Assembly: GCA_964016885.1 (NCBI GenBank)
Contig: OZ024741.1
Coordinates: 38,192,001-38,256,000, forward strand
Reading direction: 5' to 3'
Source: Eledone cirrhosa
Lineage: Eukaryota
Length of the DNA stretch: 64,000 nt
A program made the translations under genes and the position numbers. Of the stretch, positions 1,151 through 63,880 are shown in pieces (within the stretch, counting starts at the first letter, position 1; the number at the start of each line of letters is the position of its first letter). The notes beneath the pieces were generated by a model. The model searched no databases. It was not told where the DNA came from and worked only from the letters and a program-made list of their open reading frames with translations.

Positions 1151-1456
1151 ATTTTAAGTATTTCCGTAGAAAAGGTAAATGAAAAAAGAGTGCTCTATGT
1201 ATTGTACAGAGCTATTTAATTACACGATAAACAACACAATATGATTATTTCATTTCCAAAGGTTTCAAGAAACTAAATGATTCTTGAAAGGAATATCCAG
1301 TTCAATCGCCAGACAAAATAATTATGTTTTAGATATCCAAAACAATTATTTTGTCTGACGACTGAACTGGATGCCGTTTGCAAGAATCATCTAGTTTCTT
1401 GAAACCTTCGGTAGTGAAATAATTATATTGTGTTGTTTATTATGTAAGTAAATAAT
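1151..1456. mobile_element. Fold-back micro-Penelope insertion (family C) in (TA)n
   Basis: Imperfect inverted arms ~1218-1323 / 1344-1450, an extra tail at 1151-1217, a hammerhead in the arm, (TA)n on both sides. Confidence 0.75.
1344..1424 (+). ncRNA. Type I hammerhead ribozyme with extended stem II
   Basis: aattattttgt-CTGACGA(1355)-..gaactggatg..catctagttt..-GAAA(1401)-cc-ttc-gg-TA-gtgaaataatt. Confidence 0.75.
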
Positions 1457-1606
1457 ATATATATATATATATATATATATATATATATATATATATATAT
1501 ATATATATATATATATATATATGTGTGTGTGTGTGTGTGTGTATATATATGTATATATATATATATATATGGATATATATATGGATATAAATATATATAT
1601 ATATAA

Positions 1607-2005
1607 TAGTAATAATAATAATTTTGAAGACTAAAATCCAAAGAGGGCTCGATAAGGATAAATATATATCAAATATATAAGAACCGTAGAGCAAATATTT
1701 ATTAAAATAACAGATTAAAGTTTAAGCAAAGAATCGCTGCTTTCACCCTTAACGGGATCTTCTGAAACAAACAAAGTCAATCTGTAAACGCAGAAGTGGA
1801 TATTTGATCACGTATTATATTCGTTTTTCCCGTTCTTTGCCAGGGAACGTTTCCACGAATCAAAGTATCGTCTTCCTGTCTTCCTCCGGTTGCAACGTTT
1901 TTTGAAACATCCACTTCTGCGTTTACAGATTGACTTTGTTAGTTTCAGAAGATCCCGTTAAGGGTGAAAGCAGCGATTCTTTGCTTAAACTTTAATCTGT
2001 GATTT
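1607..2005. mobile_element. Fold-back micro-Penelope insertion with a U4A-variant hammerhead (1928-1997)
   Basis: Arms ~1703-1802 / 1908-2005. agttt-CAGAAGA-tccc-gttaa-gggt-GAAA-gcag..ttgc-TT-aaact. The tail 1607-1735 recurs near-identically at 4600-4727 and partly at 25033-25061. Confidence 0.75.
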
Positions 2006-2180
2006 ATATTACAAGATTCAGCCTATGAAGAATTAGTTTTAGATATTCTGTTTTCTTAAATTACTAAACTGCCTCCTTAATTTCATCATTTCAATTAATT
2101 GAGTTAATTAATTTCGAAATTTAAACGACTGCCAGCACTTCAGATATTATCCAGGGAGAAGTATATGTGTGTATGTATGT

Positions 2181-2626
2181 TCTTCTGGTTTTATAATTTC
2201 ATAAATTTTTGCCAGTCGGTTTCTACCATAGTTACAAGACTCTCTCATTGAGAATTACACATCAACTAGGTAGATATCTCTGCATGTTTGCATGCATCCA
2301 TGTGTAGGTATGGATGTTATTGTATGTGTGGATGTGTATATTTTGATTTGTATGTGTGCATGTACATACGCTTTGTATCTGTACATGGGCATAAGCAGTT
2401 ATTAGATGCAAAATGTTTGGAATGTTTTACACATTTTTACTGTTCCATTAATGGATTGTACTTGTAATTTCCTAACTAGTTGTGTTCTTTCTGTTCCTGT
2501 GAAACCCAGCTTCTCAAGATTTGTATTGGGGCACATACTAACATATCCCAGTGCCCCAATAATCACAGGTGTAAATCTGAAGGTATAATCAGGGTGGAGT
2601 ATCTGCAGATTTCTCATTAGTTCTGC
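2181..2626 (-). mobile_element. R4/Dong-like LINE 3' end (RLE endonuclease C-terminus and 3' UTR)
   Basis: YAELMRNLQILHPDYTFRFTPVIIGALG...LQVQSINGTVKMCKTF. Both ends abut (CATA)n-type repeats. Confidence 0.7.
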
Positions 2627-2959
2627 ATATGTATGTATGTATGTATGTATGTATGTATGTATGTATGTATGTATGTATGTATGTATGTATCTCAGGTCAC
2701 TCTTGAGTGCTACTGGTAACATGTAATCCAGTACAACCGGTCGCATGGTCAGGTCGTCGGCGACTAAATCAGCAACCCCACCAAGTTTACTTGGTGAGGA
2801 GGGTGATTTTGGACACCCTGCAGGACAAAAAGCAAAACCTGACAAAGGGAAGAAGAACTCAAAAGAGTCAACATCCATCCAAAAGTGTGTAAATATATAT
2901 ATACACATGTACATGTGTACGTATATGTGTATATACATGGGAGCATGTGTATGTATATG

Positions 2960-3312
2960 CGCGGGGACATAGAAATAGTCGGGCTGGACACCCGATTGTG
3001 CGGTTAAACCACTGGGAGTAAAAGACCTCTAACCTTTGTCAGGGCATTCTTCTAGGAGAAGGCAACTCAGGAAACTGGGATAACTCCGATATAAAACCTG
3101 CGGCTCAGTAGTTACCGATGATGTTGATCTTTTCTTCTTTTCGGGTTATAGCTACTGTCGCTCAGAGAGTGGGATTGGCTCAGTGCACAGTCTTTCCTCA
3201 CTTTAAAAAATATCTTCACACACAGGCATTGCACCATAGAATTAATTAATAATTATTAATAATGGTATATCGTGCAATGGCCATACTCGATAATGAGGGG
3301 GCAGCCATCATG
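2960..3312 (+). mobile_element. RTE-derived non-autonomous repeat with (ATGT)n tail
   Basis: Shares agagagtgggattgg...cacaggcattg and the 3' end ggccatactcga...gcagccatc with 15830-16122, 39470-39600, 58150-58200 (minus) and 59820-59915. Confidence 0.55.
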
Positions 3313-3484
3313 TATATATGTATGTACGTACCTACGTACGTATGTATGTATATATGTATGTTTGTATGTATATATGTATGTACATATGTATGAATGTATG
3401 ATTGTATGCTTGTATGTGTGTGTGTGTATGTATACATGTATATATGCGTGCGTGTGTGTATGCAAGTGTGTATGTATATTTTCC

Positions 3485-60977: not shown

Positions 60978-61119
60978 ATATATATATATTAGAAAGTGAG
61001 GTTTTTTTTACAAAATGAAAAATAACCGAGGTGTCCTACACGAGTGAAACTATAAGGAAAAAAGATGAAATCGAAAATGCAACTGGAGTCTTATTTTAAA
61101 AAATATATATTTATTTGGT

Positions 61120-61158
61120 TCCTTTACCGGTTTCGCAGTTCTTCTGCTTTTCAAAAAT
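61120..61158 (-). ncRNA. C3U/G8A-variant minimal hammerhead
   Basis: ttt-TTGAAAA-gcag-aagaa-ctgc-GAAA-ccgg-TA-aag. Confidence 0.65.
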
Positions 61159-61437
61159 AGAATTGAGTTGTGGAGGGTTTGTGGTTTTTCTCACACACAC
61201 ATATATATATATTGTTATACTTGGGGAGGGTCATATTGTTATAATATTGCCAGAAATAATAACACTCACTGTTTGGTTTGTGTTGGTTTTCGCTTCTGTA
61301 TCATTTATATCTCCATAGTTAATTTATTTGGCAATCAATGTTTATCATTGATTGACCAACGGTTAAAAATACAGATATAAATATATATATATATAGTCTA
61401 TCAAAGTTCTTTCGACACACATATGCTATATATATAT

Positions 61438-61605
61438 GGGAAAAGAGCCAGGACTCCGACGGGTGAGTTCGGTCTAGCTGTCGAAACGGCTGGAGCTCAG
61501 CCGTCGGGGTTCTGACTCTTTACCTATTACCCACTCTATTACTCTAAGTATCGAGTACTCTGGTGCGTTATGGTCCACCTCGTTTCTCGCCACACTTTCT
61601 TTGTT
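61438..61605 (+). mobile_element. Family A PLE terminus
   Basis: GAAA-cggctg-gagct-cagccg-TC-gggg; GAGTACTC at 61553. Confidence 0.8.
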
Positions 61606-62857
61606 ATATATATATATATATATATATATATATATATATGTGTGTGTGTGTGTGTGTGTGTGTGTGTGTGTGTGTGTGTGTGTGTGCATAATTACCACTG
61701 AAGCACAAAGATCTTTGAAAATTCGAGCTCCATCGATTAAATTCAGTCTGTATATGAGATTCTTCGAACTCTTTCTGACATGTTGCACCTGCCGCTTCCT
61801 GATAGGTTTATCACCGAACATGTAGTGGTGTGGTGTAATCCACTGGGTCACCTAAACACCTCTCTCTAATTACTACGATCTGGAAGGAGTTGGCCATACG
61901 GATGAATGAGCCCTGTGCGTTGAACAGGTTTTTACAGTGCATCTCCCTTGCTATCTTACGGGGTAACACCTTTGTAATCCTGTACGCTGGGTCCATGGTA
62001 GCATCCACCCGAGATTTGCTCTTCAGATAGACTGAATAAGTAAAGGAAATAACGTGACATATTGCCATTGGTTGATTTATACATACATAAACATATATTT
62101 AAACATACATACACACACACACACACAAACATACATACATACACACACACATACATACACACATACATACATACACACATACATACACATATACACACAT
62201 ACATACATAGATACATACACACGTACATACATATATATATACATACATACATACATACATACATACATACATATATATATATATATATATATATATATAT
62301 ATATATATATATATATATATATATATATCCATACATATACACATACATTTTAGCAATGTGAAAAAGATTTCGGATTGTTAAAGGGAGGTTAGCTAGAGGT
62401 CATTTGGGGAAGATATTTAATTGAAAGCGACAGAAAGATACCCTGAAGACATATGTGGGATATATTTAGTAGTGGTCGAATTTAGGTTAAGGACAAATTT
62501 GAATAGGAAGTTATGTATGTTAATACTTAATAAATAAATACTGACAGGCTAGTCATTAACATCATGTGTGCGTGTGTGTGTGTGTGTACGAGTGTGTGTG
62601 TGTATGTGTCTGTGTGTGTGTGCACGTGTGTGCATGTGTGTGTGTGTGTTTTATTAAGTGAGGCATCTGGGTTTAGATGGAACTAGAGAATTTAATGGTT
62701 AATTCTCATATGTAAAACTTATATTTAGTTTAAAAAAGGAGGAGAGTTTAAGGCGAGTATATGGAGGAGGGGGAGGGGCAGCTGCAAATTTTGGAATTTA
62801 TAGAACAGGTGATTAAAATTAGGTTCACCAAACGCATGCGCACACACCCACATGTCA

Positions 62858-63140
62858 CCCTGGTGCAGTCTGCGACTAACCCAGGTTCTGCTGCACGTCT
62901 GGCTGAGGAGGCGAAACTCTTCAAATACCGGTCGCTATCCGACAGGTTTGCGGTTGTACACTTGGCAGTGGTGTCCTTGGTCCTAGGGCTACCTCCCTAC
63001 TCACCACCATAGGTGCTGAGCTGGCCAGCCGCAGGTGTGAGCCTCGTGAGCTGGAATGGCTTTTCCAGTGCGTCTCCCTTGCCGTCCTCCAGGGAAACGC
63101 CTTCTCCATTCTGTCCGCCGGGGCTGTGGGGAGGCCACCG
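62858..63140 (+). mobile_element. CRE-clade LINE 3' end
   Basis: SATNPGSAARLAEEAKLFKYRSLSDRF; homologous to 46925-47210. Confidence 0.78.
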
Positions 63141-63726
63141 ATATGATTGACTGACTTGTCATTTTATCAGTCAGATACTCACTCCTCCACTCTTCACCCT
63201 AATTCTACACGTAGCAGCAGTATCAGTAGTTGCCATAACAACACAACAAAAATTGAAGGCAGGGATATTATCATTTAGTTGTCGAAACCGTCACGATTGA
63301 CTGACGATAGCTGATGAAAGAATCATATTGTGTCTTTTTTTCTTTATTTTTTTGTAGTCCTCTATGCGTAAATTTCTTAATGTCTTGCGCAATACTTTCC
63401 ACATACAAACATACATATATTCATATGTACGTATATGTAATATATACGTACATGTGTATTATATTTTATATTATATTATATTATTGTGCCAAAAGTAGAA
63501 ACAATTATATTATATTATATTATATTATAATATATTATATTATATTATGCCCGAAACGTCGCAACAACACCCCCCACTCTCACCAAGCGTGAATCTAATA
63601 ATATTTGTAACATTACTACTCCGTTTGTTTGTTTTGTTTTTTTTCTTGTTTTCTGATATTCCGAACTATATATATATATATATATATATTTCGAAAATAT
63701 TCTTACTTGATATATATATATATAAT

Positions 63727-63880
63727 AGTAGAACACTGGAGGGTTAGATCCGTAGTAGTAGAGCACTCAGTCCATGGGACGAGTTTGGTAGAAATAGTTC
63801 CACAACAGTCACTTCATGCCGAGATCCGCATAAGGTGAAACATGTTCTCGGTATGGTGAACTAATTGTTGTGGAACTACT
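63727..63880. mobile_element. Family O fold-back PLE terminus
   Basis: Tail matches 39769-39875; short inverted arm; GAAA-catg-TT palindromic stem III remnant. Confidence 0.65.

Follow-up and report, generated by a model that had tools for sequence, protein, structure and literature searches.

Penelope-like elements (PLEs) are known to carry an inverted, 5'-truncated copy and a tail and to target TA (PMC8557442), and among them the Hydra clade, which occurs in molluscs, inserts in (TA)n (Craig et al. 2021, PMC8557442). How the inverted arm and the one-sided tail arise is put as an open question in the main text of that description. For PAc, a Poseidon element of Anolis carolinensis, the text of the biochemical study reports that the protein cuts and extends both strands in vitro (Frangieh et al. 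2024, PMC11167929), while opposite-strand hammerhead ribozyme pairs 100-700 bp apart and U3-A8 covariation have been reported for Schistosoma (Cervera and de la Pena 2014, PMC4209133). A PLE origin of retrozymes has moreover been argued, in the accessible text of a preprint, from co-occurrence and from homology to the pseudo-long terminal repeats (pLTRs) of PLEs (Li, Clavereau and Pollet 2026, preprint 10.64898/2026.07.22.740005). Here we analyse a 64-kb stretch of the genome of the octopus Eledone cirrhosa (assembly GCA_964016885.1, contig OZ024741.1, positions 38,192,001 to 38,256,000, forward strand; hereafter the window), which holds a swarm of tiny fold-back elements. The swarm is real and its debris mostly of a known kind: the fold-backs are mostly cut-off pLTR ends of Hydra-type PLEs, and most copies are dead.

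Self-alignment of the window after masking of simple repeats returned 27 close inverted pairs, 22 of which are distinct fold-back elements once rows related to short interspersed elements (SINEs) and duplicate rows are dropped; two further short ones, at 63727 and 39770, were spotted by eye. This bears out a preliminary description, made from the letters alone, that had reported more than 20 insertions at about one per 3 kb, usually with (TA)n on both sides; nearly all the fold-backs indeed lie in (TA)n. All 15 coordinates listed there carry a fold-back; the entry at 23008, an old element with 68% arm identity that ends in (TATC)n, really begins nearer 23050. The best arms are 90-220 nucleotides (nt) long and 91-100% complementary, far above chance, and the elements sort into at least 10 unrelated families, labelled A to P. 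Their layout is shared: a fixed tail is present on one arm only, the other arm stops at a constant position short of the tail, and the place of the fold is variable. The single fixed tail, the variable fold point and the (TA)n flanks, all noticed previously, recur across the window and the genomic loci.

The whole genome (3.0 Gb) was searched for further copies, which were counted as exact words of 29-38 letters; reversed controls gave 0, and the counts are lower bounds on arms, not insertions. They amount to 7,198 for family A (tail), 1,548 for B, 1,691 for C, 27,203 for E, 804 for F, 120 for D (pattern), 576 for H and 3,760 for I. An adjacent inverted arm was found in 25 of 30 family A loci, with the outer end fixed within a few bases, a constant tail of about 80 nt and a variable fold point, and two of the 30 extend 5' into sequence coding for reverse transcriptase (RT) and a GIY-YIG endonuclease. 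The protein search returned many open frames of up to 784-819 codons, those of 784-786 codons belonging to family A and comprising an RT with a C-terminal GIY-YIG domain, and one tandem array with a period of about 3.54 kb has junctions that match the element at 19488 at 88%. RT/endonuclease frames in loci L096-L104 are flanked by family C arms of 97-99% identity. Family E joins a 645-codon Hydra-type frame in L161, family F a Hydra-type frame in L164 and family B such frames in both loci examined (L184 and L185); the frames of B, C and F are broken. Translations of A, C and E show RWR/RWK and DKT motifs, a CxCX5C linker, and CxxC and CxH around the conserved E and N, with no CCHH; DKT also occurs in the family B frames and the linker in those of B and F, and the two other PLE frames of the window have DKG. 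The endonuclease is C-terminal in all linked frames, unlike the Naiad layout with its N-terminal GIY-YIG domain and no hammerhead, and other features of the Hydra-type layout are present as well, namely (TA)n insertion, tandem pLTRs, an inverted 5' copy and a tail, which in tandem copies is the stretch leading into the next frame. Motifs and layout, rather than a tree, thus directly support the assignment of families A, B, C, E and F to Hydra-type PLEs.

The PLE origin proposed at the outset accordingly stands, and the two kinds of product then envisaged both occur: most elements are truncated ends of coding elements, and family I is non-autonomous. Followed in the 5' direction, A, B, C, E and F reach an RT/GIY-YIG frame and I stays non-coding, whereas no link was established for D, whose candidate in L167 is a local duplication, or for H, which has no tandem candidate among its genome matches. 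Apparent tandems of B (L160) and D (L167) and an inverted pair of F (L163) were considered as PLE loci and rejected, as they contain no PLE frame. Positions 25536-31064 of the window were likewise discarded as one long fold-back ending in the hammerhead at 31167, since the left copy runs into decayed RT-like sequence with no matching end; the segments 25536-27210 and 29406-31064 form a young inverted duplication (95-100% identity) of decayed Hydra-like sequence with nested repeats.

The same observations bear on the possibility that the fold-backs are miniature inverted-repeat transposable elements (MITEs) or fold-back DNA transposons with terminal inverted repeats (TIRs). They are indeed short, inverted, TA-flanked and very numerous, and a piece of Tc1-type transposase lies in the window, but the termini are asymmetric, the fold points vary, one family consists of tandem 316-bp units and five continue into RT/GIY-YIG frames, which encode RT and endonuclease and not transposase. 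We regard this explanation as extremely improbable overall, and it is refuted for A, B, C, E, F and I; asymmetric ends joined to RT/endonuclease frames are the reverse of the fixed symmetric TIRs without PLE link that the preliminary description had named as contrary evidence. Target-site duplications are unreadable inside (TA)n, and no empty site was recovered from contigs of four DNA runs, which bridged no element. A true TIR element is available for contrast at 19816-21419, a Tc1/mariner copy whose inverted ends measure 204 bp and which holds part of a transposase at 20591-21124.

Each family has two fixed outer ends, about 28-160 nt apart, and a common feature accompanies them. The motif GAGYRCTY has 34 matches against 6.76 expected (0/100 shuffles), at 19 distinct sites, 16 of which lie in element tails, 7 being family A copies. 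It forms the 3' side of a short stem in which RCTC pairs with GAGY across a bulged inner helix. The tail-less end is followed by one copy of this module in A, B, C, D, E, F, H, O and a stub at 59754. For A, C, E and F, the four families whose junction at the tailed end was read, a second copy lies after that end too. The stem begins with a purine, which covaries with its partner in every one of 13 modules from 9 families (6 G-C, 7 A-U); these counts were read row by row because alignments lost the register of the 5' strands. The stem appears in the best or centroid structure of 9 of 11 folded modules. A TAT or TTA triplet marks each of the two ends, a few bases ahead of the stem, and could pair with a nicked (TA)n end.

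The relative reach of the arms is equally informative. According to the preliminary description the inverted arm without the tail is the shorter one, which holds for total length but not when reach is measured towards 5', where the tail-less arm more often extends further (E1607 by 99 nt and F4173 by about 120 nt; also I57195 and B60643). Counting by eye, and taking a difference of more than 5 nt as asymmetry, the tail-less arm is longer in 9 family A loci and the tailed arm in 2 (13 about equal, 1 unclear, 5 single or long), the corresponding figures being 6 against 1 for family C (2 equal; 27 of 30 loci) and 5 (1607, 4173, 57195, 60643 and 63727) against 1 (7434) in the window, a further 5 being about equal and 6404 and 39880 being excluded as unclear. 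Pooled, this gives 20 against 4 in favour of the tail-less arm (two-sided sign test, about 0.0015, calculated by hand); among long insertions there are 3 (L094, L096 and L168) against 2 (L164 and L171). Private variants are common to both arms in L008, L010, L022, L171, E1607 and I57195.

Snap-back of a single cDNA that is then copied as a hairpin, with the same PLE origin, would yield the exact symmetry seen at many fold points (19488, 34813 and 49512) as well as the shared variants. However, a tail-primed cDNA cannot yield a tail-less arm that reaches further 5', of which there are 20 cases, and a cDNA made without the tail offers nothing from which the tail could be copied; tail-less solos also exist. 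Snap-back is thus excluded for the asymmetric pairs and quite improbable as the general route, and two primed cDNAs are favoured. Whether these are made on one RNA is a separate matter. Independent copying of the arms from two RNAs held by a dimer would account for the longer tailed arms, and a dimer is predicted for the Anolis protein in the text of PMC11167929, but in 13 of the 25 family A loci that have two arms the arm ends are at most 5 nt apart, the pairs of family B, of differing length, are nearly symmetric, and neither the private variants common to the arms nor the bias of 20 against 4 is expected. Because the end points are coupled and variants are shared, we consider this explanation, with its two independent RNAs, unlikely; arm bias and coupling are both consistent with a leader and a follower working on one RNA.

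A further alternative, that some palindromes belong to a non-autonomous family copied as a whole fold-back unit, arises from family C, in which 8 of 10 close opposite-strand pairs among the first 100 matches are spaced 64-71, 5 of them exactly 69, and many arms stop at the same base. The same stop is, however, also found without a second arm or with second arms of many lengths, the junctions differ, the stop falls on a 6-bp palindrome, which would promote joining, and the fold points of other families are scattered; we therefore consider whole-unit copying very improbable. Across 27 of 30 family C loci we found single arms with and without the tail, symmetric pairs, and asymmetric pairs in which one or the other arm was the longer. 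The sharp 5' stop of this family (L061-L090; window 35130) is situated about 145 nt upstream of the hammerhead core; it is the fold point of 8 of 10 close pairs and may reflect a transcript start, a processing site or joining microhomology.

Taken together, we consider it probable that the fold-backs are head-to-head pLTRs of Hydra-type PLEs, plus one 316-base ribozyme repeat, and that each was made from two target-primed cDNAs that began at two set points on one RNA. In such a scheme the endonuclease would cut both strands of (TA)n, and each target 3' end would pair with a UAU/UUA triplet that immediately precedes one hairpin in the RNA. Of the two enzymes, the one starting upstream would lead, and the one starting downstream would follow and copy the tail; both would usually stop early, often in the long helices of the hammerhead region, and repair would join the two cDNA ends into a palindrome. 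The longer tailed arm of the counter-examples would result if the follower continued once the leader had dropped off.

Several points weigh against this proposal. No intermediate was seen, every step being read from genomic ends, and the asymmetry counts were made by eye on the first loci of one contig. The tailed arm is the longer one in L005, L008, L071 and G7434 and in the long insertions L164 and L171; many pairs are exactly symmetric, as snap-back or later trimming would give; and gene conversion between arms could be the source of the shared variants. Most hairpin modules are no more stable than shuffles (z < -2 in only 3), site 1 of family C folds otherwise, and for the hairpin count the copies within a family are not independent observations. 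Families D, G, H, O and P are without an established frame link (G, O and P were not searched), and the module is present in D, H, O and P but not shown by G. Finally, family I lacks the hairpin module in the layout seen elsewhere.

Family I merits separate consideration. Its matches run in series spaced 316 bp and its units are non-coding and tandem (period 316, 6.5 copies, 99% matches), each with one type I hammerhead, core and helices included, and with a U3-A8 core in the young subfamily. The arrays stand head to head inside (TA)n, one arm ending before and the other after a tail of about 28 nt. By its layout family I is a non-LTR retrozyme inserted with a PLE footprint, and its RNA, circular or tandem, is likely to be copied round by a PLE enzyme in trans. 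A near-whole PLE at 42182-44513 (+), with DKG, a CX4CxxC linker and a CCHH-type GIY-YIG domain (Neptune/Nematis-like; 646 + 134 codons, one frame break), represents a candidate helper clade.

The label of hammerhead elements given in the preliminary description holds only in part. Read by eye, the 15 copies listed there include 6 with a whole core, 3 of them canonical with pairing helices (34813 in both arms, 60643, and 1151 with a frayed helix II) and 3 changed at position 4 (6404, 49512 and 1607); 2 are damaged, 4173 having lost one helix II strand relative to L164 and 7434 being altered at position 9, and 7 retain the 3' half or nothing (19488, 38350, 56200, 60080, 63727, 57195 and 23008). 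Rfam found no hammerhead among the 150 of 352 window matches listed, its best window matches being microRNA models below threshold, and none at gathering score in four full-length loci. Canonical cores occur in C, O and one subfamily of B, variant ones in A (U3-A8), B (C4) and E (A4). The family C hammerhead folds as expected (z -2.7). Full-length family A has a U3-A8 core, with position 7 varying among copies, and its best fold is the three-way junction alone, with a long stable helix III, although it is not more stable than shuffles; the window copies of this family are cut inside helix II and miss the first core half. Family B keeps the whole motif, and its helix I and helix III palindrome change together between subfamilies. 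Some arms (window 7753-7790; L004, L006, L019 and L020) skip a whole hammerhead helix, as if the enzyme had jumped across the stem base or the hairpin had later been deleted; in L015 one arm begins at the predicted cleavage site, and L167 (1700-1910) contains another palindromic hammerhead-bearing family that is absent from the window.

The suggestion that the swarm supplies self-cleaving sites to host transcripts was overstated, since in their present form most copies are incapable of self-cleavage. In many intact cores helix III is palindromic, and by the model set out in the text of PMC4209133 cleavage then requires another copy in the same direction, which a head-to-head pair does not provide. 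Minimal hammerheads are published to cleave poorly and as dimers, and cleavage is described as dispensable for insertion in vitro in the text of PMC11167929. With few whole cores and such poor, dimeric cleavage, the swarm would supply few working self-cleaving sites.

The coordinates of the window elements are collected below. Other repeats lie near the fold-backs. A Poseidon/Penelope-type PLE with DKG and pieces of RT and GIY-YIG is found at 11076-14633 (+); copies of its 3' end, carrying a minimal hammerhead, occur again as single stubs that do not fold back, at 5842, 22765, 24238, 57547 and 63544. Two abundant SINE-like families are present (5595-5771 and about 12 further sites; 60286-60600), one of them having a tRNA-like head, as are decayed L1/Tx1-like pieces of long interspersed elements with a zf-RVT domain (37-781 and 52696-54542); in L108, just upstream of the window, non-LTR elements stand in tandem and have a 1,141-codon open frame.

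Table 1. Fold-backs, related ends and hairpin modules of the window (positions in nt from its first letter).
Feature	Position	Strand	Remarks
Family D fold-back	1151..1454	-	tail 1151-1212; arms 1213-1328 and 1339-1454
Hammerhead of D1151, frayed	core at 1355	+	in right arm
Family E fold-back	1607..2005	-	tail ~1607-1700; tail-less arm 99 nt further 5'
Variant core of E1607			A at position 4; both arms
Family F fold-back	4173..4575	-	tail ~4173-4262; longer tail-less arm; hammerhead damaged by 17-nt loss relative to L164
Family E single tailed stub	4601..4730	-	99% to 1608-1735
Family B fold-back	6404..6864	-	tail ~6404-6485; whole core, C at position 4, long helix II
Family G fold-back	7434..7851	-	tail ~160 nt; the longer arm is the tailed one; position 9 of core altered; helix II skipped in other arm
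Old nested fold-back J, then family A tail stub	14659..15337		tail stub 15279-15337
Inverted pair	18383..19113		142 nt, 96%, around 450 nt
Older family I copy (retrozyme type)	19150..19445	+	canonical first core half at 19239
Family A fold-back	19488..19749	+	arms 19489-19577 and 19579-19667; tail to 19749; hammerhead 3' half only
Old fold-back K	23050..23401		68% arm identity; no whole hammerhead recognised
Old fold-back M	26454..26891	+	again at 29705-30157 via larger inverted duplication
Hydra-type linker/endonuclease frame piece	28663..29406	-	ends in 129-nt fold-back
Family O end	31065..31367	+	small fold-back; canonical hammerhead 31167-31231; tail hairpin module 31283-31306
Family C fold-back, very young	34813..35351	-	tail 34813-34909; arms 220 nt, 100% complementary
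Hammerheads of C34813	34961-35015; 35246-35300	-; +	
Family A relative, symmetric fold-back	38350..38518	+	hammerhead 3' half only
Family H stub	39770..39872	-	adjoins family I copy
Older family I fold-back	39880..40267	+	canonical cores 40073 (+) and 39927 (-)
Family B fold-back	49512..49885	-	arms joined without gap; variant core in both arms
Additional A-type stubs	55974-56087; 61465-61604		
Family A fold-back	56203..56395	-	hammerhead 3' half only
Family P fold-back	56631..57190	+	absent from the preliminary description; arms 127 nt; tail 57058-57190, hairpin module first; second copy of the family in L164
Young family I fold-back	57195..57462	+	cut 3' of hammerhead; tail ~28 nt
Old family A relative, tailed fold-back	60080..60265	+	
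Family B relative	60643..60977	+	canonical core 60773 (-) on longer tail-less arm; tail to 60977
Family H fold-back	63727..63880	-	hammerhead 3' half only, on tail-less arm
Hairpin modules after first cDNA start point	6448-6476; 1188-1212; 31283-31306; 59754-59777; 63761-63784	-; -; +; -; -	also in each family A tail

With its intact open frames and tens of thousands of tiny young products, this genome renders the open question of the PLE mechanism testable, the pattern of ends predicting start sites set by the hairpins, the arm bias and shared variants. For annotation, the stubs should be filed as PLE ends and not as MITEs or microRNA hairpins; the main text of the curated octopus repeat annotation names neither hammerheads nor palindromes (PMC13282606). 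Octopus shows the strongest hyper-editing and a high potential for double-stranded RNA (dsRNA), the source of which among repeats is not analysed in the accessible text of that study (PMC5625713). Were they transcribed, perfect local hairpins spaced every few kb would offer ready substrates for editing, and a dsRNA or editing role of the fold-backs is plausible. We tentatively advance a wider model, which is less likely than not to be correct: a leader-follower pair of RTs would work on one RNA with start sites set by the two hairpins, the follower being unable to overtake; the same machine would copy ribozyme circles; and its debris would be a main source, in this genome, of sequence able to pair with itself and so of substrate for editing.

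The inverted arm, the tail and TA targeting are published PLE traits, while the bulged hairpin after both start points and the arm bias were not found in print. Our literature search, which covered subscription journals thinly, found no publication on twin hairpins, arm bias, octopus retrozymes or a PLE footprint of retrozymes; the supplements of PMC8557442 may already name these families. Like the Hydra clade as described there, the elements have a single frame with RT and C-terminal GIY-YIG, RWK/RWR, DKT, CxCX5C, CxxC and CxH motifs, (TA)n targets, partial tandems, an inverted 5'-truncated copy, a one-sided tail and a pLTR hammerhead. They differ from it in their tails (about 60-160 nt versus 30-40), their units (3.3-4.2 kb versus <3 kb), and several variant cores (U3-A8, C4 and A4) with a helix II of 50-100 nt, and twin hairpins and arm bias do not figure in that main-text description. 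In agreement with the minimal PLE hammerheads in the text of PMC4209133, the motifs are of type I, lie in pLTRs, have palindromic helix III and U3-A8 and occur as thousands of solo copies; family A differs in its long stable helix III and in folding alone as a three-way junction, and the position-4 variants are not in that text. As in PAc (PMC11167929), two internal RT start sites would bracket the tail, both target strands would be cut and extended, the target is AT-rich, the hammerhead lies upstream and the tail leads into the next frame in tandem copies. PAc, however, belongs to another clade and has one AC-rich stem-loop in place of two like hairpins, and its inverted arm is left unexplained in the published text. 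Family I, for its part, resembles the animal non-LTR retrozymes (Cervera and de la Pena 2020, PMC7229834) in its 316-bp non-coding unit, its one type I hammerhead and its range from monomers to multimers. In contrast to the retrozymes in the available text of that paper, in which the word 'inverted' is absent, its arrays are placed head to head in (TA)n, with two fixed ends and a tail.

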